Shown: piece by piece, positions 2,389 through 30,964 of the stretch
Layout: every line of letters starts with the position of its first letter
Numbering within the stretch: position 1 is the stretch's first letter
Source of the DNA: Psammoneis japonica
Taxonomy: Eukaryota
Direction of reading: 5' to 3'
Assembly (NCBI GenBank): GCA_008632985.1
Contig: QPGO01000109.1
Location: 248,001-278,964 of the forward strand
DNA: 30,964 nt
Translations under genes and position numbers: made by a program
Notes under the pieces: generated by a model
The model's input: the letters and a program-made list of their open reading frames with translations, nothing else
Databases searched by the model: none
What the model was told of the DNA's origin: nothing

Positions 2389-2521
2389 TAGCCTTTCCGT
2401 CTGGCTTGGTGCGCCGACCGCGCTGAAGCAGAGGTTTGAAGCGGTGCGCCATGATGTGACTGTTTTATTGCACAGTTGCGTTCGGCTGTGTTTGAAATGG
2501 GAAGGCTCGCCGGGATAGACG

Positions 2522-4870: not shown

Positions 4871-4960
4871 TGGAGAAACTTCGTCATCGTGCAGAGGCTT
4901 GTATCGAATGAGACATGGGCTACATGCGCTTCGACATTGTAGGAGCAAAAGGCGTTAGCC

Positions 4961-11122: not shown

Positions 11123-11458
11123 GTTGACGTAGGGCCCTATACATACCTACATGTTTTAGATTTGCACACTCTAGTAGTAGTCTTGTTTTGATTTTTTTTT
11201 TGAACCATACATTTTGGGTTCACTCTCGGGCTTTATTTAGCGTAGCAGGGAGTTAATGCACGCGTCAAAGAATCATGCAAATAGATCCACGTTATGTGAA
11301 AGTGTCCTGCGTTCATTGCGTCATGTTTTCGACTTACTAAAGGGCTACTTACTCTTACGCTAATGTAAGCATCATGATGATTCCAAACGTTATATCCTAG
11401 AAGCTAGAGCGACGTAGCATCGGCATGAACACCTTAACCCGAAATCATCAAACAACCA

Positions 11459-12352: not shown

Positions 12353-12804
12353 GTATCCTGTCCGTCTACGATGGACTTCACCGTTTCGTCCGTTCCCTGC
12401 CTCCCTCGAGATTTCATTCTCTAGACTCCTGTTAAATGGGCGCTGGGTTTCTTGTTTCATTTTGGCACTCGCTCTGTGTTAGACTATCAACGTGTCTGTA
12501 TCCGCTTGAGGCGGTCATCGAGGTGATTGACACTTTCCAATCTTTGCACAAATGCCGGCGAGAATGTTCCGCTCGCGATAGTTATTGTCTCACAATAATG
12601 TGGGGATGACCTCAGCCTCAGCATCGTTTCTTGTATCCCTCATCCACTGGCTTTTCTTTGTCACTTTGTGTCAGAGCCTGTTTGTCTTTTGATTTCATTT
12701 TTGATACAGAGCAGCTGATGAGATATGAATGCCGTGCACATTTACACTCAAACAGAAATACCGAAAATCCTTCTCGAGTCTTTGCATTCAAAAACTTCGA
12801 TAGC

Positions 12805-14580
12805 CTACTCAATCCGCCAGACAGTTGTCAGCCCAGAATGCGTTCCGCCTGCGTTGCTGTATTGTGCACCAGCTACAGCTGTTGATGCATCGCCAGAGAT
12901 GGCAACGTCCCAGCCCAACTGCGCATGTGCCTCATCCCCAGTAGCGCTATCGAGAAGCTTCCAATCCTCACCAAGGTATGAAAACAGGTATACACGACCA
13001 GAGTCAGGCCCGTTCGGACCTACGGCCCTCGGGGCACCAACGAGCAAGGTATTTCCGTCGTGTGAAATCGAAACGCCACGCCCAAACTCATCGCCAAATT
13101 CTTCCCCTTCAAGTGGGCTTCCAACACGGACATAGTCCTCACCGACCCGGTCGAAAACAAGAACGCTACCTTTGTAATCGTTGTCCGTTTCGAGTCCTAA
13201 GGCTACTCTGGAACCATTAGCTGACATTGTTACCCTCACGGCGGCTCCTGCAGGGATGCCTGGGAGGCTTCCCACTTGCTCCCAGGCAACTTTCACGTTG
13301 CTGTACTCGTAAACCTTGGCAATCCCAACGCCCCCTACGATCATCATGTTTCCGTCAGTACTCATGTCAACCGAAAGGCCAAAGTACTGTCCAGCTTCCG
13401 TACCATTGATAGACAGCTGCCCTTTTACAGCAACTCCAGCAGATTTCTTTTCTCGAACAGAAATAAACCCCCTATTGTTATTTGCATACGGGGCTCCCAT
13501 GGCAAAGGTGCGGCCACTGGTGGAAACTGCAAGTGCAGCTCCAAGACCTTTGGAGTCTACACCACCGGTTATTTTCCATTCTTGATAAAATTTCTCACCA
13601 TTGGAGTTGTGCAAATACACTTCACCATTTCTTTCCTCAACATCACTGGCGATCAAGTAGGTACCCATTCCATTTAGGGCCACACTTGACCCAAACCTAT
13701 GATTTCTCCCAGTCCTGTTATCGTCCAAACTCTGCAGAATCTTCCATGCTCCATTGATTAAACGGATCACAACAACTGCTGAATAGTATCTTTCACTGTA
13801 ACCGGGACAGCCAAACGAGACTGTGCTTCCATCTGTTGCCACTGCGACGCTATAGCCACATAGAAATTCACCTTGTTCTGCCTGAGCAGAGGTTGCAATC
13901 TTCATCCGTTTTCCAGAACTCGAAGGCTGAGGGGTGCCACCGACGGGTGGGAGAGGAGGTTCCACTCTTGTCGGCACGCGGGTAGGACTTGGGGGCGCCC
14001 TCGTCGGAGCACCATTTGGGGGGTCTCCGTGCGGGTTTCCAATCAATGAAGGACTAGGCGTCGGAGAGTCGTTGTCGTCAAAAACTCCCATGAGGCTGAG
14101 CACAAGACTAACAGCCGCTCCACACATCATCGCAACACCAAACAGAGTCAACAGAAGCTTCCAGCGAGGGCAATTTCTCCTGTTGTCCTCTTGTTGCTCT
14201 TGCGCCAAAGTGCCTGTCCCGATAGTAGGATTGCTCTGCAGTACTTCGTTGAATCGTGCTTCGAGTCTCGCAAAATCTTCCGCCGTTGCTCCGTCGGGAT
14301 GCTGCTCGCTCATCATGCCCACCGATGAGGACTGCTCATGGCTTTCATCATCAACAACAACAATGTTCGAAAGGGATGGCGGAGCAAGCCGAGATAATGC
14401 CGCTTGTGTTTCCTCCTTGATTTGTTCGAGTTCAGATATGCGTTCTTGTTTCGCTGCAATTTCGGTATCCGTAGCATTTGAATTTTGTGCTTGCAGCTCG
14501 CGCAGCTCTCGCCTTTCACGACGAAGCTCCCGGTCGATGCTATGATCTAGAGCAAGCCCCGAACCTTCAATGGTGCTCAT
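12805..14580 (-). CDS. Type II membrane protein, 591 aa: coiled coil, one TM helix, Pro-rich stalk, FG-GAP-like beta-propeller repeats
   Basis: TM LLLTLFGVAMMCGAAVSLVLSLMGVF and PSPS/PTRAPPSPTR stalk. Repeats such as FGSSVAL, FGLSVDMSTDG, FGRGVSISHDGNTLLVGAP...GRVYLF and LGWDVAISGD...AGA. Confidence 0.9.
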   Translation of the reverse strand: MSTIEGSGLALDHSIDRELRRERRELRELQAQNSNATDTEIAAKQERISELEQIKEETQAALSRLAPPSLSNIVVVDDESHEQSSSVGMMSEQHPDGATAEDFARLEARFNEVLQSNPTIGTGTLAQEQQEDNRRNCPRWKLLLTLFGVAMMCGAAVSLVLSLMGVFDDNDSPTPSPSLIGNPHGDPPNGAPTRAPPSPTRVPTRVEPPLPPVGGTPQPSSSGKRMKIATSAQAEQGEFLCGYSVAVATDGSTVSFGCPGYSERYYSAVVVIRLINGAWKILQSLDDNRTGRNHRFGSSVALNGMGTYLIASDVEERNGEVYLHNSNGEKFYQEWKITGGVDSKGLGAALAVSTSGRTFAMGAPYANNNRGFISVREKKSAGVAVKGQLSINGTEAGQYFGLSVDMSTDGNMMIVGGVGIAKVYEYSNVKVAWEQVGSLPGIPAGAAVRVTMSANGSRVALGLETDNDYKGSVLVFDRVGEDYVRVGSPLEGEEFGDEFGRGVSISHDGNTLLVGAPRAVGPNGPDSGRVYLFSYLGEDWKLLDSATGDEAHAQLGWDVAISGDASTAVAGAQYSNAGGTHSGLTTVWRIE

Positions 14581-15018
14581 TTTGGCGTATATTATGTGAA
14601 TGTGTTCGAAGTGGGTGCTGGTGGGGTTGTTTCACCGTTGTGGCAAAGTATGGCGAGTTTGATAGCACTCTCGGTTTCAAGTTGCAGGTGGCGGTGCGCG
14701 GTGGATGCAAAAATCTTCTCAGACTGACACCCGCTGTAGAACTGTACCGGGGTTTACGTAATCGAATCATGCTTCCGCGTTCAGTTCGGCAGTTGTGTGG
14801 TACCGCTCACAAGAAATTTTGTATGTGCTAACGAAGCTATGTAGGATCCTACATACTGAGAACTATTCCTCGTGCACATTATATGATCTCATTCGTGTTT
14901 CTCACACGGGATAAGGTAATAAAATAAGGTAGGTTTCTACATACACAGCACAATACGATTAGGGCCCTACCGGTACATACTTCTGGACACTTCAAACCGC
15001 TCGCACCTCGCACAGGTG

Positions 15019-16556
15019 ATGAGTGATGACACGTGACTTACTTTTTGGCGGCGAAGAACGCGTCTCTCGTTCATTTATCGCCGGATTTCAGTAAGCAAAC
15101 GACTATTGTCGAGGCCGAAAGCAATGAATATAGCGTACAAGAGAAACGACTCGGAATCGTGGAGAAAGCTGTTCTCAAAGGCATTTGCCAAGAGTGCCAC
15201 AGCCATCTCGAGAGGAGCAAGCCAACGACGCTGAAGGCATCGCTGCTTCGTCTCTTGAATGGTCCAAAGTTCATAGAATGTAAGAGCAAATCATGCTTGA
15301 AAAAGAAAGCTGAATTAATTTCCTTGCTGGAGGTGCAATGCGCCGAGAAAAAAAAGGTGGTTAAGGCTGAGAGCGAAGTCGTGCAAGCGGCTGCCCAAGC
15401 CAAAGTAACGCAAAGCGAAGCTTTGAAAGCGGAGGCACAAGCCAAAATCGACATCTATAATGCGTTCTCCCAGTTGACTAAACGGGTACTACAGGGAGCA
15501 GTAGTGAAGGAAAGCAAGTTGGTTCGTCAGACTCAAGCAGCCATTGATGCAGCTATGCTCGGAATGGGAATGATGAGTGGCTTGAGGCAAGAAGTCACAG
15601 AGTTGCTAAGTCGGGTTATCAATGCCGATCTCGAAGCGTTGTACGTCGATGGAAAAGATGACAGATCGGTGGCGTCCATGTCTGACTTCAGCGCCCTCTC
15701 ACAGGATCACATGGTTGAAACTATCGCAGGCCTCATGGATTTAATCCAGCTTGAAAAGAAATTTGAAAGTTGGAAAAAGAACAAGAGAGGCGGCACGAAG
15801 TCAGAAGATGGCCTAGTCAAGCAACGGAAGAGGAGCAAAAAGAAGCAAAACCATGGTCAAGTCCATGTTGATGAGCTCAAACAGAAAAACGATATAAGCC
15901 GGAAAGAAAAGCAGCATCAAGCCGAGTTAGAAAAACTCATGGCTGAAAAAGACGCGCTCTTGAAAGACAAGCACCAGCTTCAAACCGACTTTATGAAACT
16001 TAACCACGAGAAAGAAGTTCTTGCAAAAGAAAAGCAACAACTTGAAGTCGAGTTTGAAAAACTCAAGGATAAGAACGAAGTAATCTCCAAAGAGAAAGGC
16101 AAGCTTGAAGACGACCTTGTGAAACTCGAGGGTGAGAAAATAGGTCTCGCGAAAGAAAAGCACCTACTTCAAGCCGAGTTTCAAAAAGTCACAGATAAGA
16201 ATGAAGTGATCTCAAAAGAAAAGCACCAGCGTCAAGCTGGGTTGGAGAAGCTCGAAGATGAGAACGAAGTTCTGAAGAAGGAAAATGCCAAACTCTCCTA
16301 TCGAATGGATATATTCAAGAGAAAGGAAGAACGTCTTCAAGCCGAAATTGGTGAACTACAACATCAAGCCAAAGGGCTTTTTGTGAAGGACAGATTCCGC
16401 CTTCGAGAAGAGCGGAGTCGCAAACAAAACAGCGAGCCTGGCGCCTTTTACTGCCGTTTGATATTCTTCGCTCTTGCTGTTGTTCTTATGATTATGATGA
16501 ATGCATGGAATCACACCAGCCCCGGTTCTTCAATTGCCATCAGGGAGGAGAACTAA
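15019..16556 (+). CDS. Coiled-coil protein with ~21-aa repeats and C-terminal TM helix (tail-anchored-like); start probably ATG 15019 with a 59-nt intron (15033-15091)
   Basis: 507-codon open frame lacking an early in-frame ATG. Removing GTGACT...TTCAG gives MSDDT-KQTTIV in frame (inferred). Repeats of EKHQLQAEFEKLKDKNEVISK type at ~15900-16270. TM LIFFALAVVLMIMM. Confidence 0.75.
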
Positions 16557-16949
16557 CTTTTTCACAGGTGATTCTTTGACAAGAGAATGAAATATGGATG
16601 GTTTGCGACGCCATCCAAAAAAATAATATTGCATACTTTTACGTACAAAATAATTTCTGTGTAGTCGAGAACTATGCTGCCGCAGCCTATCGTAACACTA
16701 TTAATTGCTCCGTATGGTAACAAACGAGAGTCTAACGTGTCAGGTGTTTCAAGACTCCGTTGCGGTCCCTCAGGCCTGCGATAACTGCTGTGCAGGCTCC
16801 CCAACAAATATTTCTACGCGGTGAACAGGTTATCGATTCATCCATTCCTGACAATGTGTGTGATCTCAAAGAAGCGGTCAAGGAACGGGCATCAACAAGT
16901 CCTCGCAAGAGTCGACGCGGCCCAGCTTGACGTGTGTGTCCACCTGGAA

Positions 16950-19900
16950 CTCCTGTAATGCCGAATCTTCAGGATGTGGACAACACAAGTGTGCACCTTG
17001 AACCTGTGTGGACATGGTGCGGCTTCTCTCAGGTGTGCACACATGTGATGTCATTTGCATTTTGCATGATGTGGGTGCCCTTTTTGGACTGGCACACTTC
17101 ATTCATGTTCTCTGGCTGCGTGTGGTGTCAGGCTGTCATGCATGGCAAAATGAGCCGATGCTTCAAAGACTGCCATTGCACCCACAGCCACATCATTCTT
17201 GAGCTCAAATCCATTCTTGAGGCAGCAGCACTCTTCTTTCACTGTCAGTGGGCCTGCAACAAAACTCTGTCAAGTTGCGCAACAATGTTGATGGGCAGAT
17301 TTTTTCATGCTGAGTGCAAGTGCAATTGTTGAGGATCATTTTCCCTGCTGTGGGTTGGCAATGAAGGGAGAGAGACCAAGTGTTGTGGTGCAAATTGGGC
17401 ATTGAACAGACAGCAGACCTCCCAACTGCACTGGTGTGAGATCATGTCAGGATTCAAAAGAGCTTCACAACTCACTGGTTCCAGTTGCTCCTGCTGTTTT
17501 TTTCAAGTGAGTGTGAGCTTGAGTCACATGCATTGCTGCCAGCAGCTTTCCAGCCAGCTGCCAAATTGCTTGGGCAACCTGCTTTCTCATGGCTTCTTGC
17601 ACTCCACTTGCTTTCTGGGGGCTGTGCTCACTCTTGTGCTCTGAAGGGATCTCTGCACTCGGGAGAGCAGCAGCACACAGCAGCTTGGATCTGTTGAGCC
17701 AGATGTGCAAACCACTCATTCATGTGTGCCTGACTTGTCAACACTGTGTCATGTTCACATGCCATGCCCACATGTCAATGTGGCCTGTCAATCTCAGGGT
17801 CCAGCATGTGAGACATTTTTGGGTGATCCCACCCCTTCATCTTGCGTTTCTTTTGTGTGTGTCATCTGACTGACTTCTTGATTCACAGGTGCTGTGCATT
17901 GACTTCACCATGCTCACTCAATGAAGCACTTGGCATCACTTTTGCTCTCTCCTTGATGCCTTTTGGTGTCTTTCCCCTTGAGTGCATGCTTCAGTGCATT
18001 CATTGGATCCTTTTCTGCTCTTCCTCATTGTTGTCTTCTTCTTCTTTGTGAGCTTGAGTGCGGCAGCAGTTGTGGCCACATTGTGGCAATTCTCGCGCAT
18101 CACCCTGGCAAAAGCTTCTGTGCCAGCTGTTGGCCAACTGCTCCAACATCTCTGTGTCACTGCTGTTTTGGATTGTTTGCTTCCAGCTGCCACAGAGCAG
18201 ATGTTGTCTGAAGAGCTTGAAGTGTGTGTCTGGCTGGCAACTCTCAACCTTTCACAAGCAATGCTGTCAAGTGCCACCAGGCTTTTGTCTCTGGCCAACG
18301 CTGCTGCAGAGCCAGCAACAAGCAGCAAAACATTTGGGCAACACTTCCCAGCTTGTGCTTGCCAATCATTTTCTTGATGCATTCTGGCCCCAGGTGGGGC
18401 TGTGTGTGACACTGAACATCTGAGCAGGCAACAGAGTTGGTGGTGTGACCACAGCTCTTGATGGCCTGTTCCAGGAGCCCCAAATGATCTGCAATCCTCC
18501 ATCATGTGAGAGGCAAATTTTCTGTGCAGCTTGGCACATTGAGCTCCTTCAAACTTGATCATTTCAAAAATTGAAAGATGACTGCACACAAAGAAAAAAG
18601 TTTTGCATGCACTCTCCCTTCAATTCAGGGAGGAAATCAATTTTGAAGGACGAGTTCATTGTGCCAAATGCAAAAATGGGCCAGTGATGGGTTGCACACA
18701 CTGTGCAGGACACCTGGAGCTGGAACAGGTCTGATGCTTTTGAAGTTCTTGAAAATCCACCTGCCCCACACAACTCTTGAGATGTTCAAGAATGGTGCTG
18801 CACAAAAAAACATCAAAGGCAGACAATTGACAATGCTGGCAGGTGTTGCAAGGCTGATCTCAGGTTTTTTTGCAACACAGCGGGGAAGAGAGCCCATGCA
18901 TCAGGCACCAAATCATGGAGCAAACAGATCTGTGTTTTTTGTGAATTTGGCACCCTGCTTTCATTTTGGTCTGTTTTTTTGCTTTCCAAGGGCCACTCAC
19001 CGCACTCTTGCACTCTGTTTGAACATCTTGAGGTGCTCTCTAAAAAAAACAGGGCACTGTGTGGCACAACTTAGATCTGCCCCAGATCTCAAGCTTGCAC
19101 AACTCATCTTAAAGTGTGGGAACTCTTTCTCATGGATTCCAGGCAACAAAATGGGTGATGGGCAGACAAATGTGGTGTGACACTGTTCATTGATTTCCAT
19201 GTGACAAAATGTGCCAGATGTGTCGAGCTGCAATCGACAAGATGTGCACCTGTTTGGGTCATTGTTGTCAAGACACCAGTGAACAAAACATTGCATCAGC
19301 CAAACTTGTCATGCTCACATTGTTGCTGCTGCATGCCTGAAATTAGCACAGATGCTGTTTTCATCCCTGCATGGTTGTCATTGTCACTTCTCATGTTGTG
19401 TCACATTTTTGTGCATTTCTGTCACATTTTGAAAAATTGACAAACTTCTGGCAGCAAAAATTTTGATCTGCCACCTGTTCAATTGGGGTGGTGCAAACAT
19501 TCATGTGTGGTGTTTTCAACTGTTTGTTGCCAAATTGCATTTTCAGTGTTCTGATTGACCACAAAGTCTCGCATCTGTTGGGCTGTCTCTCTCATGACCA
19601 AAGACTGCACCCACCTCCTGCTCTCATGCGGGCATCTGTCTTGCCTGCTGGCAAACTCATTGCATTCTCCCCAAAGTGCTTTTGCCAACTGCCCCCTGAG
19701 GACACACCAGATGAATGGAAATTGTGCCCTTTCAAAGCTGAAGGAGCAACAGAAGTGTGTGCATTCTTGTCACTGGCTCACCCCGCTGAATGCACAAAGA
19801 GGCTGTGTGAGCCTTGCACATGATGTTGGCATTGAGCAGCTGCCAAAAAGAGGTTGACATGCTCCAGCTTCAGGCAGGACTGGCTGTGTGTGATGTTGCA

Positions 19901-20320
19901 CCCACACCAGAATTCTGCTTGCAAGCTCTGCACTGAAAACATCAGGCTGTGAATGAATCAGCAAGATTGCCTCTGCTTGCAGGGCCTTGTTTGAGAAAAC
20001 AATGGCACAACATGGCATCAGCACCATCAAGCGCTGCTTCTGCAGGCTGTTGTGATCCCATGAGAACAAACCAGATCAATTGAAACTGTGCTCTCTCAAA
20101 GCTGAGGGAGCAAGGGAAGTGTGTCTTCTCTTGCCATTGGCTCCAGCCACTGGCTGGGTGTGCACATCAAGAAGAGGTGGTTTTGCCTTGCACGCGCCAG
20201 CATTGAGCAGTGGCAAATGGGTTGGCATGCCCCAGCTCCAGGCAGAACTCTCTGTGACATCTGGGACACCAATGATCCAGGTGTTGCACTGGCTGTCAAG
20301 ATTTCTTTAAACAAAACCCA
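16950..20320 (-). pseudogene. Decayed long cargo gene(s), divergent from the transposase; product unknown (possible 2OG-Fe(II) oxygenase-like C-terminus)
   Basis: Chain of protein-like minus-strand ORF pieces (e.g. 17936-18589, 18637-18897, 18997-19296) and an internally duplicated segment encoding VLP(E/G)AGACQP twice. Confidence 0.4.
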
Positions 20321-20726
20321 ACATTCTCTCCCTTCAATCCAAGATCGTGCTGATTTGTCAAGTCAGCATTTGTGAAATGTTCAACAACAAACATCTGTGT
20401 TCCTCAATTCAACTGTTCACCCCCCCATCTGACAAGCCTTGTGTGTTCATTCAATTCTGTGTTAATTTCTGGATTGTGTGTCAATCAACTTTCTGGATCA
20501 AAATCGCCGCATGTGTTCGCAAAGGTGGGTTCTGCTTGTCTTCTAAATTTTCTCTCCCTGCCCCTTCCATCCTTCCATCCCGTCTGTCCACAACGCCTTC
20601 CCCCCTTGATTGCACATTGTTTCTCTTTGCATGTTTCTGCCCTCACCAAATCCCCAAGTGATTGTTGCTGCACATGCTGTTTCCTTTCGACTCTCTTCTC
20701 AACTCCTTTTTCTCTGCACATCGACC

Positions 20727-23700
20727 ATGTTGTCTGATGGTCTTGTTTGTCCATGGTGCAAACAAACTGGCTTCTTTTCCGAACGTGGTCTCAGCAGGCA
20801 CATCAGAACTAACTGCCTCCGTTCTGCCGTTTCCACCAAGTCTTTCAGTTGTCCTCGTTGCAGACAATGTGGATTTGACTCCAAAAACAATGTGCAGTGT
20901 CACCCATCTCGGCACTGTGCTGCTGCATTTGGCCTTCATCCCCCATTGACACAGTTGCGCCATGCAACCCAATTGTCTTCCCCATGCGGCAGAACATCTC
21001 TTTCCTCTCATCCTCTGGATTCCGCCTCCGTTGGCTCCCTTGGGTCCAACACCAACAAACCCAAATGCCCCCATTGCCGTGTCCCCTTTTCCAACATCGC
21101 CCTTCATCTACAGAAGCACTTGCCCTGCCGCGAAAAGGAGGAAATGTCCCTTTGCCGGCATGCCGCATCTTCCAATGCCACAAATGCACTCCCCCCTGCA
21201 GATGATGAATCACTGGACGACCATGACGATCCTGCTGGGTTTGGTTTTGCCGATGACAAACCCCCTCCTCCCCTCCCCAAAGTCCTTTGGAATCCAGCTC
21301 CATCTCCTCCCACACCATCGGACAATTCTTCTCCAGCTTGCCCTCCCTCTGCCGGAAATGGACTGCGCCCACCCTCCGTCAGACGGTCTGGTCAATTGCG
21401 TTTAGCCGCCAACATTGCTGCTGCCAGTGCAGCCTCCCAAAATGCCCCAATTTGTTTTGTTTGCAGACAATGGGTGTCTGCCCTTGGAGAGGACAGTCCT
21501 GTGGATGTCCCCGAGTTCATTGGAGCTGACCATCTTAATGGCAGTTCTGGGCCCCCCTCAATTTCCCGTCCAATGGAAGAGCCTGTTTCTTCCTTCAATC
21601 AACACAATCCTCTTGGCCCAGTGCATGATGTTGCACCCAATGAGGACTTTGATGCACCTCCAGTCAACTCACCCAGCATTGCACCCACGGTGCATTTGCA
21701 TCATTCATGTCATCGTCAGGTGTCGCAATTGACTTCATTGACAAAGTGATGAGAATTTAGCATGAAGAGCATGCAGAAAAAAGACTGGATGTGTCAAAGC
21801 CCCCATCACAACCACCGTGGCAATGAAGCAACTCCTGGGGCCATTTCCCAATGTTCCTCTCCCCCGCACTGCTGTTGTGATGCTTGAATGCAACAATCCA
21901 ATGCAGCAACAGAAGGATGGACCAAAATGTTGTCACTCCCCACCTTTCCCAGTTTGCAGTTTCACCAAGACCTTGCAGGATCTCTTTGCCAAGCCAGTGT
22001 TCCGTGATCTTTCCAAGTTGCAGGTCAATCCAAATGACATCTGGTCACCTTGTGTGCCACCCACTGCTGACGGTGATTTGGGTTCCAGTGCTGGCCAGGC
22101 TGACAGTGTTGAGATGCAGTTCCTGGATTGTCCTGGTGACTGGCAATTGTCCACTCAAAGTCAAGACATGGGTGATGGCGAGTGGCAACAACATTGCTCC
22201 AATGCCAAGGAAACAGCCTCTGACTTTCACATTCACCTTGTCAAATGCCCGGACAAGACTGGAGTTGATGCGGTCAATCCTCATGGGATGGAGCCTGCAA
22301 TGCACTCACTTGCCATGATTCGAGAGGACACACGCCGCAACTGTCGTTGTGGCATCCACTTGGATTCACACCCAATTTGGACAAGAAATGCAAGAAAGAC
22401 AAGCTTGGGTGCCTTGTTGTTGCCAACTGCCACCACATTCTCAAGGAGGTTCTCCGTGGTCTGCTTCATTGCCAGGCAAATCCACCCATTGTTCGTGCAA
22501 TGACAGGCACTCAATGCTGCTGTGTCAGAGCCACAATGCATTGCAACTCCCTGTTGGGGGATGTCCTCAATCAAGAACACATTTGTGGGAAGAGACATGG
22601 GGCCAAAGCAAGACCAAGAGGTTGTCTCACAACTGCCATGTGCCCTCCCACCTTTCTGATGATCCCCTCCATGTCTGCCAATTCTTTGACCAGGCTTTCA
22701 CAGAGTTGCTCGCTGTTGCTGCATTGGGCCCAGATCCAGAGGATGACAACAGCTGTTGCACCAGCATGTCAAAAGCGTTGCCCGGAAGCATCGTGCAATG
22801 ACATCAAAAAAAAAAGGCTGAGACTGAGCTGGCTTCCTCCCTCATTCGCCGAATGACTGTGTGCTCCAAAATGTTGAGGAAAGTGTTTGGACAGCACATG
22901 GTGGACAATGCTCACTTTCCACTTGGCATGGGTGACAGCCCACACGGTGCATTTGGCATGACCATTGCTGACACAATGCATGTGTTGGAGGTGGGCATTG
23001 TCCCTCAAATGATGGAGGCAACAACAGGAGACATGTCTGCCAAACAGAAAGAGGAGTGCGGCCAGATTGCATCTGAATTGTTCTGCACATCCCATTGTCG
23101 TCCTGGTCAGAGACGTGACTGTCCGCGAATTTGAGTTGATGGGGGACTTTCCACACTCAGTCAACTTGTGTGTGACGAGAAGGTGGGCAAGCTTCTTGCA
23201 CTTGCCATCATTGGCCACACACACGCTGGCAGAAAACTGCTGGAAAAAAGGTGCGATCCATCCTTTGACAGCAAAAAGAAAAAGACGGCTGATGGCTTTA
23301 AAGGAAAGAAGCAACAAGAAGAACAACTGACCAAATTGTCAGAAAGTGGACCCAACGATGAGGACCCTGATCCCGTTGAACCATCAAATGAACAAACTGG
23401 TGAAACAAACACAAGCCCGGTTGATGAGAATGTGCCTGTTGCACTTCCCAGAGGCACATGGTTGGATGTCGCCTGCTGTGTGATGCAACAGATGCATCGT
23501 CACGGCCTTTCTGAATTTTGGGAACCATTTTCCAATCAACTGGATGATGGTCACTTTTTGTTGTGCCAGAAGATTGCATGGGATGAAACCAAATCATTGA
23601 GACGGAACCAACGGGCTGTTGAGACTTCACCTGATCAATTGTTGATGCCCGGACCACATGGTCTTGTCGTTGGTTTGGCGGATGATTGGGACAACTTTGC

Positions 23701-24874
23701 AAGGTGAGCAGACAGATGGCACTTTCTTCTCACCAAGTCAAAATTGCCAAGCACTGTCATTTGTGCAGAAATGGAAAACAAACTTCCTGACTCTTTCATG
23801 AAAATCCGTCGATTGTGGAGTTGATGAATTGTTGGACTTGTTGCATCATGTGCTGCTTTTCCATTTGTTTTGTCTCTGCAGCAAGGGACTCCATGAAAAA
23901 ACAGGAAAGGTGGATTTCAAGTGCCGCGTCATCCTGCTCATGTTCAAGACAAAAGTTTGCCTTCATCGCACAAGGAACACCAGTTTGTTCCGGACCACCA
24001 AGTTCCATTCTATGCTGCATCTCATTGTCGACTCTTTCCTTTGTGGCCAGATTGCAAATTTCTCTGCCATGACTGGAGAGAGTCACCTGAAGTTCTGGGC
24101 CAAGCTTCCGGCAAAAACTTGCCAGGTTGCTTTGGGTGCAGACAATTTCTTGGACCAACTTGTTGTTCGTTTGCATGACATGGCAGTTCTCGAGAAGGCA
24201 TGCAGCCCTCTCATCCATCCCATGGTTGGCCAGGCAAGCGCATCTTCCTCTGAAGAAAATTGATGCACCCCTTGTTTGTTGTGAACAGAACTGCCCAAAC
24301 TTGCTGTCAGTGTTCAGGCAGCAACAAGATCCGGGTTGTCCCGGAAACTGCAGAAGTGGACTCCACCCTGCTTCATTTTTTGTTGTTGCCAACGGAGGAA
24401 CTGTCCACCAAGCATGATGAAATTGTTGTTTGCTCGGAGTTTGCCATGCCAGAGAAAGGGATTTTAATTCATGGACACCCCAATTGCAACAACAATGGGT
24501 TGTGGTGTGACACACCCAGGGTCTTGTGCAAAGAGGGAACCGGTCAGAAAAAAAGGCACCCTTTTGTGCTCCATGGTTTTGCACTGGCTGATGACGGAAC
24601 AACGCCACTTGCCGCAGGACAGTCATGCAAGGAACAGACAAAGACATTGCATGTCCCAAAATTTTGGCATGCTGGCAGAGACGCAATTACAGCGGGTGGT
24701 TTCTCTGTCCTGGTTCCCAACAACTGCAATGGAGACAATGTTGAAGCAGCGGGATGCTCGAACTCATTGTTGTTTGTTGCAGACAGACACAATGACTGGC
24801 CAAATTATTTCCTGTCCAACAAAGTGCTCCAGCTTCACTCAGACAAACGCAGGAAGCGAGATGAAGAGAAATGA
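20727..24874 (+). pseudogene. Degenerate Plavaka-like (CMC/EnSpm-related) transposase with three N-terminal C2H2/C2HC-like zinc fingers
   Basis: Ordered motifs across frameshifts: CPWC..RHIRTNC, CPRC..RHC, CPHC..HLQKH; C-P-DKTG (22246) ...EPAMHSL...TRRN; WHPLGFTPNL (22350); LGD; PHGAFGMTIADTMHVLEVGI (~22940-23000); KFHSMLH...CG...NF...GESHLKFWAK.PAKTCQ (~24000-24125); HPNCNNNGLWCD (24476). These match recalled Plavaka motifs YxDKT, WRPLGYIPN, DxLHxxExG, KFHxxxH..YG..NxxxxxxE, HPxY...WYD. Confidence 0.8.
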
Positions 24875-25117
24875 CAACGCACCTTGGGAAAAAGGAAACG
24901 CTCGTAAATTTTTTTAAGCACTCTGTCAGTGTTCTAATGAGTTTGCTGTGAAGGCGTGTCAACCCATCTAAAAGCATCTGTTGGTTCCACTCCTTGTTGG
25001 TCCTTCCATCAGCAAGTGCAGCGAACAGTGAGATCTTGCTAATTTGTCTAAAAGTGCTGGTTGGTCCCGCTCAGTTTCGATTCTCGGAATTGGAACAAAC
25101 CCTTCTGCTTCATCCAT

Positions 25118-27723
25118 TCATGCTTTGACTTGACTCAAGAGCAAACACTGACATGAGTTGACAAAATCACACCATTGGTCACCAACAAAACATTCAATCC
25201 TGTGCTCTGATTCATCAGGCCACAAACCGCTTGTCGACTTGTTCGAATGTTCCAAAGAGGGAACGGGCAACACACCCCACTCGCCAGATGTGAGGTGGCA
25301 TGGATCCTCACACAACTTGTTGTTCATTGATCGACATTCCCTGCAGCCCAGTTGGTCACATTTGGCCCAAGTTGGTCTTCTGCCATTTTTTCTTGCAACT
25401 TCAATTGCATTTTGAACAACTTCCCTTGCCTTCAACAAGGAGATCCATTCACCTCTCGCATGTGCTTCCTTCCTGACAACACACATGCTGACAAAGAGAC
25501 AAAATCCAGAGTTGCCCTTGGATGTGCACGCCACTGCGGCATTTTGAGGGGGGATTTGTCCCATCGCGGAAGCCGATTGGATCGTCAAAGCCACGCGCAC
25601 ATCGCCCAACCTCTTGCTTGGCAACCACTGCTTGGGTGATTTGTTCTTCCTGGCTTCTCGACAAAACAAAAGTTCCCTGGCAGATTCGTGACTTCCGCCA
25701 GTGTCCTTTGCCTGCAGAGTGTCAAATTGACTGGAAATGAATGCACAGCAGATTTGCATCTCTTCAATGTTGGTCAACAAAGGATCCGTGCATTGAAATC
25801 TCTGCAACATTGAACACGTTGTTCCGCTCATGTTGCCGTTGTTCTTCAGTTGCTTCATCATCAACACCAGTTGGTGGCGCAACAATCCCACTTCATTTTT
25901 CTGCAACAAAGTCTTCACAGATTCTTGGTTTTCAGGTTTCACAGATTCCCTCAATGCAACAAGAGGTGCACCATTGAATTCCATGCCCACAAATGCCGCG
26001 AATTCGTCTCTGTGGTGGAAAGCAACATGCCCCTCACAGCGAAATGTGAAATTGAACCAGCTGTGGGTGATCCCAGGAGAAGGTCTCTGTCTGAGCCTTC
26101 ATCAACAAGCAATCCCAACATGCCCTCATGGTCGCCACTGTCAAATCACTGAAGGTGATCCCCAATGTGTTGGGTGGCGCACTGAACATCATCTGTGTTT
26201 TCCATTGTGGAAAGGTTGAAGCCATCTGTCAGGGATTCCAGTTGTTCCAATGGGGCATTTGCATGTTCACAATCCGTCTTGAACAGCAGCTTTTGTAACT
26301 GAACTCCGACGATCTCTCTGTTTTGCAACAGATGGTCAAACATTGTGTTCGTGATGGGTGCCGAATGCCTTCTCAGCTCATCCACCAAATCTTTGCCAGT
26401 GTTGCAACCCCGCCAATCATCAATGAACACAACACCGTTGCCAATGTCATCCAAGAGGAATTCCCGCTCATTTTCTGAGTCAAAGTGTTTTAGAGGAAAA
26501 CCGGCAATGTGAGATCCTGCCTCATTGAGCTTTAACACACCTCGCAATTGTTCTGGGCAACCCAACCAGGCTTGGCATTTCTCAGACAACCTTCATCTTC
26601 ACTCCAACATTTCTCCTTGGGAAGACCTTGGTGTTCCATGCAAAGCTTTTTGGCACATGACGTGAACCAAAATCACGGTCAGCTGCAAAATCCACTGTCT
26701 GCACCTGGCAGAGAGGTCTTTTTCCTTTTCTGTCATTCCAGGCTTTGCAACACCTGATCCACCATTGCGGCTCCACCCTTGAGCAATCACTCCATTCATG
26801 CCAAAATCTTTGGCAACAGTGCCTCGACATGAATGGTCAAACTTTGCAGCAAGTAAAAACTCTCGTGCTGACCCACTGCTCAGCCCCTGTTCAACAATGG
26901 CTCTGAGCTGCGTTGACAAACCGAGTCCAAGAATTCTTTTGTCAAACTTGCGTGACCTGAAGACAGCATTGTTGGTGATTCCCTCCATTGCATCTGGGTT
27001 CAAAACAAATGGATGAGTTGGATCACTTGCCCGGTGCGGGTGGTTGGCACCCGAGTGCAGAATCTCTGCCTTGCATTGAAGGTGCCGACTCATTTGCTCT
27101 AAAGCATTTGGACCCATCACACCATGTGCAATTGCACGCAGCTTGAAGTGGATGATGAGGGAACACCTCGTTCCCTCCCTGCCTGGTTTTTCAACAAAAA
27201 GGATGTTGTTGTCGAACGCATCAGACAGCTTGTTGGACTTCCGGCGAGGTTGTTTCAGGTGGAACTTTTGCTTGACTTCTCTTTTGTTGTTGGAATTGTC
27301 ACCAAGGCTTTTGGGACGCATTGACAACAAACCCCAGTTCTTGCCACCCGCCCCATGTGGTTGGCCCTTCTTCCTCCAACAACTGACAAGATTGGCGTTG
27401 CACTTTTTGATTTGGTGGAGGAGAGATTCTTCCTTGGTTTTCTTGCTGTTTTTTGTTCCACATGCAGAGTCAGGTGCATCTTTGCAGTCAAGATCAAACT
27501 GCACAGCATTCCGGATGGGAGCCGGCCTGCAACATGGGCATTGCAGAAAATGCTCTTGTCTCTTGAGACTGCATGTTGGACAATGCACACAGTTGCCACC
27601 GGTGAAAACTGGAACATGGCAAGGGTCCTTTCTTCTTCTGGCCAATCCGATGCATTTGACTGGACCTCCAAAATCTGGAAAATGCGCCAACACAGCTTCA
27701 CCTGGTTGTGTGAGCCATTTCAC
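25118..27723 (-). pseudogene. Decayed cargo gene of unknown function, convergent with the transposase
   Basis: Consecutive long same-strand ORF pieces (26599-27723, 26146-26589, 25118-25990) with protein-like charge patterns but no Tyr. Confidence 0.55.
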
Positions 27724-28300
27724 TTCTTCATGTTTTAACTCATGATCCTTTGTGCACTCTTCCCTTGCACAAAACTTTCCGCAGGCAGAGATGTCAACTT
27801 GTGCCTTGTCTCAAAGGATGGGGACCTTGTTGTGTGCTTGCTCTTCACGCAAGAAGCAAATTGGGCACTCTTCCGACATGTGTTGTTTCTTCCATTTGAC
27901 CCAAAATTTGGAAAAAGCAAGATTGCATGCAGGCAAGAAGAAAATCCCATTTTCCGTCAGCAACAGCAGCAGCTCCTTGAGTGCATCTTGGAAAAAAGGT
28001 CCCTTTAGAACTGAAGCCAAGAGATGCGCTGGGTTTGAATGCACGCAGTCAAAGCAAGTGCGGTCAAACTTTGTCTCTTTGGATGATCTCTTCCATTCCG
28101 CTGATCTGTGCAAACTTAGAACATCGCACTCTGTGTGCTTCAGTGAGGAAGCACAGCGCATGTCTTCTTGTCAATTGTGCAAACATCACATCCAAGATCC
28201 TGCAGGCATTGAGTTTGAATGCTGTTGCGCGCATCTTTGTCACTTCCATTTAAATCACCACCGACTTCCATGCCAATTGTCAACAATCTGCCAGCATCAT

Positions 28301-28774
28301 GCAACAATTCTTCACTCTCTGGCCCAGTCAAAATTTGACATTTGTCATCCATGTCATCCGTCTCCACCCATGTTGTGTTGTTGTCACAGTCATGGGCAGC
28401 CTCCTCACCTGAGTCAATGCCGGTGGCAATTGTTTGACTTTTAGCTTTGCTTTCATTCCAGGAGACATCAACATGCATTTTGTCAGGCAAGGAACAGATG
28501 GGAAATGCAAGTGGTGCGACAGATGCAATCCCTTGCTGGCAACACTTCTTCACTCTCTGCCCCAGTCAAAATTTGATGTTCGTCATCCATGACATCCGTC
28601 TCTGCCCAAGTTGTGTCATTGTCACAGTCATGGGCAGCCTCCACACCGGAGTCAACACCAGTGGCAATCATTTGACTTTTAGCTTTGCTTTCATTCTAGG
28701 AGAAATCAACATGCATTTTGTTGGGTGAGGAACAGATGGGAAATGGAAGCAGTGCGCAAGATGCAATCCCTCAC
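28301..28774 (-). repeat. Tandem duplication, 238-bp period = 79-nt intron + 159-nt exon, inside a decayed minus-strand gene (~28140-29254)
   Basis: Copies start at 28301 and 28539. Intron 28774-28696 reads GTGAGG...CTCCTAG. Exon 28695-28537 is 53 codons (NESKAKSQ...ESEEVLP) and continues the upstream ORF (...SVVVQ) in phase 0. Confidence 0.9.
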
Positions 28775-29554
28775 CTGAACCACCACAGATCTTTTGCATT
28801 TTTTGGTTTGGAGGCAGTGCACATCAATGATTTTTCTGCATGCCTTTTTTTCTTTCGTTGAGCCAGCTCTGGGAGCCCTCTTCAAAGCCAATCCAATGTA
28901 GCTTGGATGTGCCGGCCATTTTGCAAGTTCACCAAGGCGGTTTGGGTTGCATGCATTGCTCTTCCCACTGCTCTCAAACGCAAAGATTTTTGCACCAAAC
29001 ATCATCAGCACAATGCCGCGGATTGAGTGGTCTGTCAAACCCCTTTTTTTGAGTGATGAATGAACGTGACCGCATTTGTTCACCCAACGTGTGGGAGAAC
29101 AATGCAGCCTCAATTTTGTGTCAAGGCTGTTTTCTGTGCCAAACGGGGCTGGATGCACCGATGGGGGACAACGGCCAGATGGAATGTTGGCCAACGCTGT
29201 TTTGTGACATGGCAGCGGCAAAGCAATGTCAGGTTGAGTTGGGTGGAATGTCATCAGGAAAGAAGTGCGATGCGCCGGACAAAAAAGAGATTCGTCAGCT
29301 CCATTTCAGCAACGTGGCACAACAGGCAAGGGATTGGGAGGCATTCTTTGGGGTGGGATCATGTTGAGGTCATTGTTTCACAAAGGGAATGACATGGCTG
29401 CGGAGGACAAGAGACAGAGTTGCCCCAACGTTGTCCGTTTGCTGCTCAAAATGCGTTGATCAGCGACTTGGACCAGATTTGGGAGAATGTGGTTTGCTGC
29501 GGGAGATCCACTTTATGTCACGACAATGCACTGGCTTTTGTTCAGTGTGCAAAC

Positions 29555-29845
29555 AAAAAAGTGACACCAAATTGATCTGTCAACAGACAGGTGCATCAAC
29601 AAAAAAGTGACACCAAATTCTTCTGTTGGCGCACATGTGCAAAAACAAAAAAGTGAAACCAAGTTGCTCTGTTGACAGACAGGTGTGTCAACAAAAAAGT
29701 GATGCCAAACACACATGTCAACACATGTGTGCAACAATGAAAAAGTTGTGCCAAATTGGTCTGTTGGCAGACAAGTGCATCAACAAAAAATGGCACCAAA
29801 TTGATCTGTTGACATGTGGGTGTGTCAATTAAAAAGTGACACCGA
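29555..29845. repeat. Tandem array of ~46-bp units, 6 full copies plus a partial
   Basis: Units begin A5-6 GTGACACCAAATT-like at 29555, 29601, 29647, 29693, 29740, 29785 and 29831. Consensus approx. AAAAAAGTGACACCAAATTGATCTGTYRACAGACAGGTGYRTCAAC. Confidence 0.92.
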
Positions 29846-30036
29846 AGCATCATTTGCAGTTGTTCATTGCACACATTGTTCTAAAAGAGTTTGTTTTTGG
29901 TGCGGAATGAATGGTGGATGGTGGCTGTTCCTTTGTGTTGGCCGCGGTGTCAACATGAAAACATCACACAAAAACACTGACAAGACAGTGTGCAACCAAA
30001 TTGTTTTCTGTGCTTTGAGACAGCTGGGATGACCCA

Positions 30037-30964
30037 TTGAATGAGATCATGCAGCAAAGAGGATGGACGAAGATCACATCACACTGGACCATTTGCGAAA
30101 AAAACGTCTGCCGTGCACCCAACAGATGCCGTTGGCAACACAGATTTCACAAGAAAGCCATGCTCATTGCACAGCAATGGATGCAGACTTTCGCTGAATT
30201 GGGTCTGTTCTGCTTAAAAAAAAAGACTGGGTTCCATTTGATTTGGTGGAGCCGGCATGTTCAGAGAATGGTGCAAAAGTGTTCTGTTGACGGATGCTGG
30301 AAATTTGCCCATTGGCCGACAACTTCATGTCAGAAACACAGCAAGTTACTGGCACACCCGGGTGAAATGAAATCTCATGTCGTCAAGAGCAAGATGGCCG
30401 GGTCCAAAGAAAGAGTGCACCAGGAAGGAAAAAAAGGCTGCTTGCAAAAATTCAAAACACCACAACCCCTGTTCAACAAGATTGCAACCCTGGCAAACAA
30501 GGCACCAAGCAGCAAGCAAGAGAAGGAAGGACACCGTTTTGTCAGTGAGTTCATCATTGACAAAAAGGACAAGGCGGAAGGCATTGAGTTGGCAGAAAAA
30601 TGTTGGGGTCAATTCCTGGCTTTCCCCCAGCAGGTGATTCATGCAGAAAGACATCCCGGCACACAGCAGCAAACGCCCCTGCTTCAAGTTTTCAAGCTCA
30701 ACATCAAACTTCTGGTCAAAGGGGGAAATTCATTGTGATTGCGTGGAAACAGAATTGTTTCCTGGCGACAAAATTTTCACCATGTTTCTGTTCCTCGATG
30801 ACACAATGGAGGACAATGGTGCAGTTGAGACATGGCTGGATGGTTGTGAGGCAACATTGAATGAGAAGGAATGCAAAAAACACTTGGTCAGGTTGGGTTT
30901 GGAAAAAACAATTGCTGGTTGGAGAAGCAGGCACTGCATTTGTTTTTGATGCAAGAATGTTGCA
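30037..30964 (+). pseudogene. Decayed ORF of unknown function, probably continuing beyond the window
   Basis: Tyr-free ORFs 30037-30738 and 30641-30949. CSVDGCWKFA...CQKH resembles a small Cys/His zinc-binding motif, but Cys/His are inflated by the mutation process. Confidence 0.35.

Follow-up and report, generated by a model that had tools for sequence, protein, structure and literature searches.

Surviving TA dinucleotides in TA-erased blocks of a Psammoneis japonica contig are biased towards the YTAR context

Layout of the window

The window, that is, the whole stretch of 30,964 nucleotides of Psammoneis japonica DNA analysed here (contig QPGO01000109.1, positions 248,001 to 278,964), contains 633 TA steps and consists of a normal genic compartment with TA-erased blocks on either side (Table 1). 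In the normal compartment, three of the six long ORFs carry Pfam domains (Pkinase, FG-GAP_2 and Ysc84), whereas the 139 open frames that reach at least 70 aa in the two erased blocks, most of them in 20301-30964, all fall short of the Pfam cut-off. Two contigs of the public run X1 span 16500-20286 with 5 letters different and a word depth of ~58-133 save in one bin. For 20301-30964, the summed contig depth amounts to 856-4279, compared with ~60 in the adjoining DNA, and 3194 contigs match at a likeness of at least 80%.

Table 1. Features of the window. Y, pyrimidine; R, purine; product ratio, YTGY+RCAR to YCAY+RTGR; one-sided, TAY on one strand.
Feature	Positions	Strand	Remarks
TA-erased block A	1..2345		runs past window start; TA observed/expected 0.03, CG 0.35-0.47; product ratio 172:113
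Normal genic compartment	2400..16900		585 TA: YTAR 82, YTAY 168, RTAR 152, RTAY 183; product ratio 565:542
TA-erased block, single-copy-like read cover, most CpG-poor	16960..20300		4 TA, all YTAR; 22 CG; product ratio 240:151
TG in window, CA in covering contig	18202..18203		flank A_T (R_Y)
CA in window, TA (CTAG) in covering contig	19083..19084		
TA-erased block with many related copies in read set	20301..30964		runs past window end; 37 TA: 27 YTAR, 10 one-sided, 0 RTAY; product ratios 312:211 and 382:251
Survivor cluster	24806..25049		8 of 41 survivors, including 2 non-YTAR (TTAT 24806, GTAA 24905)
Tandem duplication, 2 x 238 bp, in erased block	28301..28771	+	period 238, 87% matches
Surviving TTAG, tandem counterpart at 28680	28442..28443		G in place of T in 7 of 7 matching contigs

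One alternative holds that the DNA itself is unmutated and that a modified base at TA was misread as CA or TG during base calling or assembly. Nanopore data do contain flank-dependent miscalls at modified motifs. However, the independently assembled X1 contigs repeat the sequence of 16500-20286 (although X1 may be the assembly's own reads), and both the absence of open frames at the Pfam cut-off and the TG/CA swaps between copies described below fit real, old mutation. We regard an artefact of this kind as very improbable.

Context bias and dose pattern of the surviving TA steps

Together, the erased blocks (1-2345 and 16960-30964) retain 46 TA steps, comprising 36 YTAR, 10 with TAY on one strand and no RTAY, which carries TAY on both. 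The stretch 16960-30964 contributes 31 YTAR and 10 one-sided steps (6 YTAY, 4 RTAR) to a total of 41, and the five TA steps of 1-2345 are all YTAR (764 CTAA, 831 TTAA, 1863 TTAA, 1908 TTAG, 2339 CTAA). The earlier note on this DNA had spoken of roughly 30 YTAR among some 40 survivors, about ten with TAY on a single strand, no RTAY and five YTAR out of five in the left-hand block; all of these counts hold, as do the positions it cited (19041 CTAA, 19072 TTAG, 20308 TTAA, 21403 TTAG, 25040 CTAA, 28006 TTAG, 21109 CTAC and 26296 GTAA). There is no TA between 16957 and 19040, and all 41 survivors of the right-hand block fall within 19041-30347. Around the survivor cluster, 8 TA steps lie in 24680-25060, 2 in 24000-24680 and none in 25060-26000. 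The cluster lies next to a contig joint (22116>24996).

In normal DNA (2400-16900), the 585 TA steps divide into 82 YTAR, 320 one-sided and 183 RTAY. Counting the NTAN classes in mutated versus genic DNA, as the earlier note had proposed, reveals YTAR to be enriched among survivors (2x3 chi-square 117, p = 3e-26; YTAR versus the rest, Fisher odds ratio 22, p = 4e-20), and the YTAR bias is confirmed as real. YTAR accounts for 45/343 TA steps in the non-ORF portion of normal DNA. Every null model tried for the excess was rejected, including base composition (0.25 YTAR predicted; binomial p = 5e-14) and new formation of TA by transition from present CA/TG (0.231 YTAR predicted, p = 4e-15; 0.257 RTAY predicted, giving 0/46 a chance of 1e-6). 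These tests address the possibility that no enzyme preference exists and that the YTAR excess reflects ancestral make-up, chance, or new TAs arising after the process had stopped. The surviving TTAG pair at 28442 and 28680 is in line with this possibility, as it is probably a newly made TA, judging its polarity from the contig majority. However, 23% YTAR and 26% RTAY would be expected of new TAs derived from the present CA/TG, whereas 78% and 0% are observed; an ancestor with 78% YTAR would not account for the surplus of YTGY/RCAR; and the product asymmetry reported below, which does not depend on the survivors, has the same direction in four blocks. An origin without enzyme preference is strongly disfavoured, and we give it hardly any credence.

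Taking the normal neighbour DNA (2400-16900) as proxy for the ancestral state of the erased blocks, on which all survival figures rest, survival drops stepwise from ~0.39 for YTAR to 0.028 for one-sided sites and to 0 of ~206 expected RTAY. The base 3' of the adenine (+1) follows the same trend: the 90 half-sites of 45 survivors have A in 55, G in 25, C in 7 and T in 3 cases, compared with A 238, G 246, C 340 and T 346 in normal DNA (n = 1170). An additive Poisson model, with independent hits on the two strands at rates that depend on the +1 base, describes the data well (deviance 3.89, 6 df, p = 0.69), whereas the counts reject a uniform rate (LRT 115, p = 7e-25). Fitted cumulative exposures are 3.7 for T, 2.8 for C, 0.9 for G and 0.2 for A (kY/kR = 6.8, bootstrap 4.2-13), and A at +2 gives extra protection. 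The order of attack at +1 is T >= C >> G > A. If all non-YTAR sites survived equally, the absence of RTAY from the 10 survivors other than YTAR would have p = 0.011.

Product asymmetry, restriction to TA and change of the DNA in place

We limited the comparison of products to tetramers of the same purine/pyrimidine skeleton. Because TA and CG decay are both transitions, this skeleton is invariant, and the one-sided skeleton has a similar density in normal (1839 in 14.5 kb) and erased DNA (2022 in 16.35 kb). YTGY+RCAR outnumber YCAY+RTGR by 1106 to 726 in erased DNA, compared with 565 to 542 in normal DNA (Fisher p = 8.5e-7); the ratio is 1.48-1.59 across four erased blocks, and 0.93 and 1.17 in the two halves of normal DNA. 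From normal to erased DNA, the share of the skeleton changes from 0.174 to 0.005 for TA, from 0.224 to 0.089 for CG, from 0.307 to 0.547 for YTGY+RCAR and from 0.295 to 0.359 for YCAY+RTGR. When half of the CG loss is assigned to each product, the gain of YTGY+RCAR (0.172) equals the loss of TA (0.169) and the gain of YCAY+RTGR is about zero. Similarly, CG-corrected trimer counts on both strands rise by ~39.6 per kb for TGY and by ~3.4 per kb for TGR. The asymmetry of the products thus identifies the change as T-A-Y to T-G-Y rather than R-T-A to R-T-G. If CpG decay favoured YCG over RCG, it might explain part of this asymmetry; in the worst case, with the whole CG loss of 0.135 going one way, the TA-derived split would still be ~62:38. 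Other flank-asymmetry ratios also differ between the compartments (AA/TT 0.66 versus 0.48, GT/AC 1.80 versus 1.41); the shift in GT/AC is expected from TAT>TGT. The AA/TT ratio compares different purine/pyrimidine skeletons.

Depletion is confined to TA (observed/expected 0.04 in erased versus 0.58 in normal DNA) and CG (0.35 versus 0.96), with TG/CA at 1.76 versus 1.15. AT (0.88 versus 0.93) and AA/TT (1.28 versus 1.17) are not depleted, in agreement with the earlier remark that ApT and poly-A stay common, and tetramer counts of NCGN survivors yielded no flank bias comparable to that of TA. These values bear on error-prone patch repair, in which T:G mismatches from 5mC deamination would recruit a Y-family (Pol eta-like) polymerase, whose errors opposite T at WA would produce A>G. 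Pol eta prefers WA motifs, TA loss and CpG loss have common borders at ~2345-2389 and 16957-17000, and the more CpG-poor erased block is also the more TA-poor. However, the Y-family polymerase put forward in the earlier note is disfavoured, since AA/TT shows no depletion while TA falls to 0.04: the rule at -1 is far stricter than a WA polymerase signature, and neither the strong 3' Y rule nor near-total erasure would be expected from occasional patches. We therefore assign patch repair a very low probability.

Three observations argue for action on the DNA in place, namely the erasure of the block with single-copy-like read cover, the TG/CA swaps between tandem copies, and the differences between window and contig at 18202-18203 and 19083. 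The tandem copies differ by 8 TG/CA dinucleotide swaps and by CCAG versus CTAG at 28697. The flanks of the swaps (R_Y 2, Y_Y 3, R_R 2, Y_R 1) lack the R_Y excess that a strict rule would predict if they derived from TA, which counts against such a rule, although the sample is small and the swaps may stem from CG. If different strands were hit in two haplotypes or strains, the TG/CA pair at 18202-18203 would be the pattern expected from an ancestral ATAT (or ACGT). CA stands against TA in another copy or contig at 19083 and also at 28894 (CTAA); given that YTAR occurs in both states at 19083, this context is slow rather than immune.

These data can also be set against RNA-level A-to-I editing of retroelement transcripts by an ADAR-like or ADAT2/3-like enzyme, with the edits fixed in DNA via reverse transcription. 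In the accessible text of PMC4817773, ADARs and fungal Tad2/Tad3 both prefer U at -1 (85.7% of sites in fungal mRNA editing), and ADAR hyper-editing yields A>G as seen here; a parallel to ADAR is also drawn in the available text of a preprint on Bigelowiella natans (10.64898/2026.01.13.699255). However, the same source gives the reverse taste at +1, with G > C ~ A > U for ADAR and A ~ G > U > C for Tad2/Tad3 in Fusarium, whereas TAG and TAA are protected here, and it describes ADARs as metazoan enzymes requiring dsRNA. Moreover, the two strands are hit equally and without runs, erasure extends to a block with single-copy-like read cover, tandem copies have diverged in place, and the block edges are sharp and common to CpG loss. 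An RNA-level origin appears extremely improbable.

A strand-by-strand mutator and its possible agents

We lean modestly towards reading the YTAR bias as the footprint of a flank-dependent mutator that acts strand by strand and converts 5'-T-A-Y-3' to 5'-T-G-Y-3' in silenced blocks of DNA. Every TA would present two targets, one adenine per strand, and the base 3' of the adenine would be the main determinant of its rate of attack (~3.7 for T, ~2.8 for C, ~0.9 for G and ~0.2 for A in cumulative units), with A at +2 slowing it further. RTAY, with Y on both strands, would be lost fastest and turn randomly into TG or CA; in one-sided sites, the Y flank would fix the product (YTAY to YTGY, RTAR to RCAR); and YTAR, with R on both strands, would decay ~7x more slowly per strand and make up the bulk of the remaining TA. 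A minority of survivors would be later, new TAs that persist in the slow context. Per-strand targeting of A in 5'-TAY-3', as advanced in the earlier note, is borne out by the stepwise survival, the additive fit, the dose test and the product asymmetry in all four erased blocks, and the mechanisms offered with it still have the standing of suggestions.

Attack on A in T-A-Y and attack on T in R-T-A are indistinguishable by sequence. In the latter case, a dioxygenase of the TET/JBP type, or some other enzyme that modifies T, would mark T in 5'-R-T-A-3' of silenced DNA, and 5hmU or 5-formyl-U would mispair with G or be misrepaired to give T>C. 5-formyluracil does mispair with G, while 5hmU:A pairs are not known to be strongly mutagenic. 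Since TAY>TGY on one strand reads as RTA>RCA on the other, the survivor, product and model data fit this alternative equally well. Dinoflagellates provide a precedent, as their TET/JBP homologues make 5hmU, which is enriched on repeats and transposons and, in C. cohnii, reportedly replaces T preferentially in TA and TC (available text of PMC11572971 and PMC11071213). However, dinoflagellate 5hmU is a mark rather than a mutation, and a base-resolution map in Breviolum is described, in the text at hand, as lacking a sequence motif (PMC11071213). We consider thymine modification rather unlikely.

A DNA adenine deaminase would be our best guess for the agent. We know of no adenine deaminase with a T-A-Y fingerprint, which counts against this reading. 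At +1, the preference runs counter to those of ADAR and fungal Tad2/Tad3 and resembles bacterial TadA only, whose motif is given as U(-1)A(0)C(+1)G(+2) in the accessible parts of PMC13170351 and PMC10586758. Similar to the footprint observed here (T at -1, T or C at +1, an effect at +2), the motif of TadA covers four bases, in which T/U precedes and a pyrimidine follows the target A; this A is converted to I, read as G. The TadA-like enzyme suggested in the earlier note thus fits, but its fit is limited to T at -1 and C at +1. In the erased blocks, T at +1 serves no less well than C, and any preference for G at +2 would be confounded by the CpG in TACG. The natural substrate of TadA is an RNA hairpin loop. 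In evolved TadA8e, context preference is nearly absent, according to the available text (PMC10586758 or PMC13170351). ADAT2/ADAT3 (Tad2/Tad3) has the deaminase fold and is found in all eukaryotes, and amphioxus BjADAT2 is able to deaminate A and C in DNA, although in the contexts GAA and TCG rather than TA (PMC10354150).

TpA hypermutation itself has already been published for the chlorarachniophyte (Rhizaria) B. natans. As stated in the accessible text of this 2026 preprint (Mettrop et al., bioRxiv 10.64898/2026.01.13.699255), mutation-accumulation lines show A>G/T>C hypermutation at TA sites only, TpA>TpG/CpA changes strike integrated giant-virus and virophage DNA, and an adenine deaminase is proposed. 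Similar to the diatom studied here, A>G/T>C at TpA alone is accompanied by long-term TpA depletion and CpA+TpG enrichment; the depletion lies in clusters of 1-kb windows, and TpA-poor CDS are enriched in transposon-type Pfams. In contrast, viral regions of B. natans are partly depleted (Rho TpA 0.45), whereas erasure here is near-total (0.04) and comes with CpG loss. Since the words "context", "flanking" and "trinucleotide" are absent from the preprint's text, supplements apart, the T-A-Y rule is not described in that text.

RIP in Neurospora and other fungi likewise involves transition hypermutation at a single dinucleotide, which strikes both strands, favours certain neighbouring bases and is restricted to DNA that is repetitive or silenced. 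It requires cytosine-methyltransferase-like proteins and duplication. The chemistry runs the other way: RIP generates TpA through C>T changes at CpA, while the process described here removes TpA and gives rise to CpA/TpG. Unlike duplication-dependent RIP, the process has erased a block with single-copy-like read cover and spared a ~460-bp duplicate in normal DNA (80% identity), which retains 23 and 20 TA. In both, the logic of targeting is reminiscent of a genome defence. The agent here would be an enzyme, for which a DNA adenine deaminase of the deaminase fold that senses positions -1 to +2 is the likeliest candidate, and it may be recruited to domains that also lose CpG, presumably methylated heterochromatin.

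Compartments of the window and the dinucleotides that are lost

The density of TA steps divides the window sharply: it is 0-8 per kb in the two erased blocks, 1-2345 and 16960-30964, compared with 23-63 per kb in the normal compartment between them (see table). TA and CG loss have their sharp edges in common. Loss of TA and of CpG begins and ends together within about 50-100 bp at both edges, and a single chromatin domain may set both. The normal compartment carries ordinary eukaryotic genes, with the Pfam domains Pkinase, FG-GAP_2 and Ysc84 in three of six long ORFs; for the kinase ORF, the nearest Atlas cluster is diatom, based on four members with known phylum. No Pfam domain exceeded the curated cut-off in 16 long frames or in the 139 stop-to-stop frames of at least 70 aa in erased DNA. 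The Atlas look-up of a 403-aa frame gave a best score of 0.77, which amounts to no recognition, and a protein search with this frame (near lengths) and a 379-aa frame (shorter lengths) yielded no match at E <=0.001. Self-comparison of the window in a purine/pyrimidine code returned the tandem repeats known already and nothing else, and the metagenome contigs scanned with transition-tolerant patterns of erased DNA gave 0 matches.

Features of the window
Positions	Feature	Observation
1-2345	Erased block
~2345-2389	Left-hand edge of erasure
2400-16900	Normal compartment
3560-4020 / 4954-5416	Duplicate of ~460 bp, normal compartment	80% identical, 1.4-kb spacing
15033-16556	ORF
15903-16273	63/126-bp in-frame tandem repeat within ORF 15033-16556	Rich in AAG/GAA codons; raises the RAAR tetramer count of the normal compartment
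~16957-17000	Right-hand edge of erasure	~400 bp past the stop of ORF 15033-16556
16960-20300	Erased block, first part	Lowest CpG of the erased DNA, 22 CG in 3.3 kb
20301-30964	Erased block, second part
24806-25049	Cluster of surviving TA	8 of 41 survivors packed in 250 bp, two of them non-YTAR; adjoins a contig joint at which another copy lacks 22117-24995
28301-28771	Tandem duplication, 2 x 238 bp, erased DNA
29499-29846	46-bp tandem repeat, erased DNA	~6.4 copies, 68% matches; length variants in the read set by contig joints

Base composition is unchanged (G+C 0.48 in erased and 0.47 in normal DNA), while CG falls and TG/CA rise strongly. With both strands pooled, observed/expected values in erased versus normal DNA are 0.04 versus 0.58 for TA, 0.35 versus 0.96 for CG, 1.76 versus 1.15 for TG/CA, 0.88 versus 0.93 for AT and 1.28 versus 1.17 for AA/TT. 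AT, AA/TT, AG, GA, AC and CC stay at 0.86-1.09 of their normal values, the other dinucleotides shifting by at most ~14%. TpA is therefore the mutated dinucleotide, as in the type known from B. natans, and CG is the only other one depleted, its drop being what decay of 5mC is expected to give. The products TpG and CpA (A>G/T>C) gain ~76 per kb, compared with ~71 per kb of TA and CG lost. Repeat-induced point mutation (RIP) has the opposite sign, with an excess of TpA and a deficit of CpA/TpG. Mutagenesis by Pol eta at WA motifs targets both TA and AA, and errors of this type do not fit the AA/TT values. With normal DNA as a proxy, CpG in 16960-30964 survives at ~0.38 of its normal density, equivalent to an exposure of ~1 per site, and the T-A-Y adenine has an exposure of ~3 per strand; on this proxy-dependent scale, a single target appears to be lost several times faster by the TA process than by the CpG decay that accompanies it.

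Flanking bases of surviving and converted TA steps

The earlier note had held that the TA steps left in erased DNA favour the context YTAR, in which a purine follows TA on both strands, and its survivor counts and example positions were all correct on recount. The 46 survivors comprise 36 YTAR, ten one-sided sites (YTAY 6, RTAR 4) and no RTAY, the context with TAY on both strands; the 585 TA steps of the normal compartment comprise 82, 320 and 183, respectively. The comparison of tetramers between erased and genic DNA by which the note proposed to check the bias bears it out (chi-square 117, p 3e-26), and other null expectations lead to the same result. Base composition predicts a YTAR share of 0.25 (p 5e-14), and a null of new TA steps, arising by transition from the present CA/TG, predicts 0.231 (p 4e-15) together with an RTAY share of 0.257, against 0/46 seen (p 1e-6); non-ORF normal DNA has YTAR at 45/343. 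Across the erased blocks, YTAR accounts for 5/5, 4/4, 12/17 and 15/20 survivors, and the 46 sites have no longer motif in common and are not telomere-like. The bias is thus real and far beyond chance. The survivor cluster at 24806-25049 may be an element junction or a younger piece.

A per-strand dose describes these counts. When survival is scaled to the TA density of neighbouring normal DNA, as a stand-in for the ancestor, it amounts to ~0.39 at YTAR and 0.028 at one-sided sites, and none of the ~206 expected RTAY remains. We modelled each TA as two half-sites, one per strand, each defined by the base that follows the A (+1), with Poisson counts in ten classes and strands adding independently. 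This additive model fits (deviance 3.89, 6 df, p 0.69), whereas a rate without regard to context is rejected (LRT 115). The lack of RTAY among the ten non-YTAR survivors (0/10, p 0.011) speaks against a model in which YTAR as a whole is shielded and every other context is equivalent. Fitted cumulative exposure by +1 base is 0.18 for A, 0.92 for G, 2.8 for C and 3.7 for T, a pyrimidine-to-purine ratio of 6.8 (bootstrap 4.2-13), and the order of attack is T >= C >> G > A. C and T at +1 are not separable, with seven surviving TAC and three surviving TAT half-sites. Survival of TAG half-sites (0.094) exceeds that of TAC (0.018) or TAT (0.008) about 5- to 10-fold, and, within YTAR, survivors number 14 of 23.7 expected for TTAA, 21 of 51.9 for CTAA/TTAG and 1 of 16.9 for CTAG. 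An additional effect is seen at +2: TAAA makes up 32 of the 56 surviving TAA half-sites, whereas the corresponding share of VAAA in these blocks is 0.336 (p 3e-4).

T-A-Y>T-G-Y and R-T-A>R-T-G would leave YTAR alike, so that the survivors do not tell them apart, and we therefore turned to the products. Since both mutation processes consist of transitions, the purine/pyrimidine skeleton is untouched, and one-sided skeletons have densities of 127 (normal) and 124 (erased) per kb. Their shares in normal DNA (n 1839) are TA 0.174, YTGY+RCAR 0.307, YCAY+RTGR 0.295 and CG 0.224; in erased DNA (n 2022) they are 0.005, 0.547, 0.359 and 0.089. If the lost CG is split evenly between the products, YTGY+RCAR gains 0.172, equal to the TA loss of 0.169, and YCAY+RTGR gains ~0. 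The ratio of the two classes is 1106:726 in erased and 565:542 in normal DNA (Fisher p 8.5e-7), or 1.52, 1.59, 1.48 and 1.52 in four erased blocks versus 0.93 and 1.17 in two halves of the normal DNA. Likewise, CG-corrected trimers of both strands gain ~39.6 per kb for TGY and ~3.4 for TGR. This asymmetry puts the discriminating flank at the position immediately 3' of the base that becomes G, although CpG decay with a preference for YCG would cause part of it and would, in the extreme case, leave a TA-derived split of ~62:38. The control pairs AA/TT and GT/AC also differ between compartments; the AA/TT control compares different skeletons, and the GT/AC shift is expected from TAT>TGT.

Together, the additive model, the lack of RTAY and the product asymmetry support and refine the per-strand preference for T-A-Y that had been suggested from the survivors, and we have shown a T-A-Y footprint. 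Viewed from the complementary strand, the same data fit an enzyme that modifies thymine at R-T-A. A mark on T that lies in repeats has a precedent in the 5hmU of dinoflagellates, TA and TC being the reported preference in one species.

Change in place on both strands

Contigs assembled from the public read run X1, possibly the assembly's own read set, match erased DNA at 16500-20286 with five differing letters. Among the differing places listed between X1 contigs and the window (40 of 1846), a TG/CA swap with the flank A_T lies at 18202-3, the window has CA where a contig has TA (CTAG) at 19083, and the CA of the window at 28894 and at 29529 is matched by TA in other copies or contigs. YTAR is accordingly not immune, TA being kept elsewhere where the window has CA (19083 and 28894), and most survivors are sites that are slow on both strands. 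Some survivors are probably new, such as TTAG at 28442 (also at 28680 in the tandem copy), which has G for T in seven of seven contigs of other copies.

Read cover of 16960-20300 is single-copy-like at >=80% likeness. Beyond ~20300, the window is covered by thousands of contigs with 80-99% likeness, which marks a multi-copy family, with contig read depth not equating to copy number. Erasure is thus not restricted to presently multi-copy sequence. Duplication by itself does not trigger erasure either, since the two copies of the ~460-bp duplicate in the normal compartment keep 23 and 20 TA and 27 and 26 CG.

The 238-bp tandem copies differ by eight TG/CA swaps and one CCAG/CTAG difference; the flanks of the swaps (R_Y 2, Y_Y 3, R_R 2, Y_R 1) lack the R_Y surplus that a strict rule would predict, but this sample is too small to discriminate between models, and many swaps may be of CG descent. 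Products occur on either strand (TGY 1054, RCA 931), and a permutation search for one-strand runs found none (z 0.66 for TGY/RCA, z -0.74 for RTGY/RCAY). At saturation, the changes look independent of one another from site to site, with either strand as the target. Editing of RNA followed by reverse transcription could also put A>G changes into a genome, but it does not fit: the erased single-copy-like block, the divergence in place and the +1 rule all conflict with this route.

Candidate enzymes and comparison with known systems

We propose that a flank-reading enzyme would act on the DNA of silenced domains, and most likely this would be a deaminase-fold adenine deaminase whose footprint spans -1 to +2 and whose product, I in place of A, pairs like G. 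Bacterial TadA reads U-A-C-G (PMC13170351, PMC10586758, in the parts covered here). A T at -1 is likewise found here, where TA alone is lost and AA, CA and GA are not depleted, and the strong preference for a pyrimidine at +1 is, among the adenine deaminases compared, common to bacterial TadA alone, with the difference that C does not rank above T; the +2 G of TadA permits no comparison from this DNA, as TACG holds a CpG. Fusarium Tad2/Tad3 editing has U at -1 in 85.7% and a +1 order of A ~ G > U > C, while human ADAR prefers G > C ~ A > U and ADARB1 G > C > U ~ A at +1 (PMC4817773, in the part covered here). The order of fungal Tad2/Tad3-Ame1 is reversed in the window, and ADAR-type enzymes, with +1 G and dsRNA, differ in that TAG survives better here than TAC/TAT. 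The T-A-Y rule speaks against a mechanism resembling that of ADAR, of fungal Tad2/Tad3 or of Pol eta. Amphioxus ADAT2 prefers GAA and TCG on DNA, and overexpressed EcTadA left the mutation frequency of E. coli unaffected (PMC10354150).

One earlier account, from a different lineage, describes a phenomenon of this kind. In lines of the chlorarachniophyte B. natans, A>G/T>C hypermutation occurs at TA alone, with 231 measured mutations, and is traced as TpA depletion and CpA/TpG enrichment (10.64898/2026.01.13.699255, in the part covered here). The words context, flanking and trinucleotide are absent from the text of this preprint (10.64898/2026.01.13.699255). The B. natans type is confined to clusters, with sharp bounds, of foreign or repeated DNA. 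Here the picture is mixed: the bounds are sharp, 20301-30964 has many related copies, 16960-20300 has single-copy-like cover at >=80% likeness, and none of the 139 frames gives a Pfam match above cut-off that would indicate a virus or transposon. The literature searched gave no account of TpA erasure in diatoms, nor of a natural DNA adenine deaminase serving genome defence.

With this 2026 preprint on another alga as the one description of TpA-specific hypermutation so far, and with no known enzyme, the flank rule is the new and testable part. T-A-Y >> T-A-G > T-A-A, per strand and with a further effect at +2, provides a fingerprint for candidate enzymes, and its comparison with the 231 B. natans mutations bears on the question of a system common to both lineages. 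Base-editing research would also have an interest in an enzyme from nature that makes A-to-G changes in DNA. It is conceivable, though on balance we consider it unlikely, that a dedicated nuclear DNA adenine deaminase (T-A-Y, anti-A at +2) erases TpA on both strands of silenced chromatin as genome defence, and that its family is common to stramenopiles and Rhizaria. If so, these algae would possess an old, SAR-wide system that resembles RIP with opposite chemistry, and with it a natural, context-specific DNA A-to-G editor.
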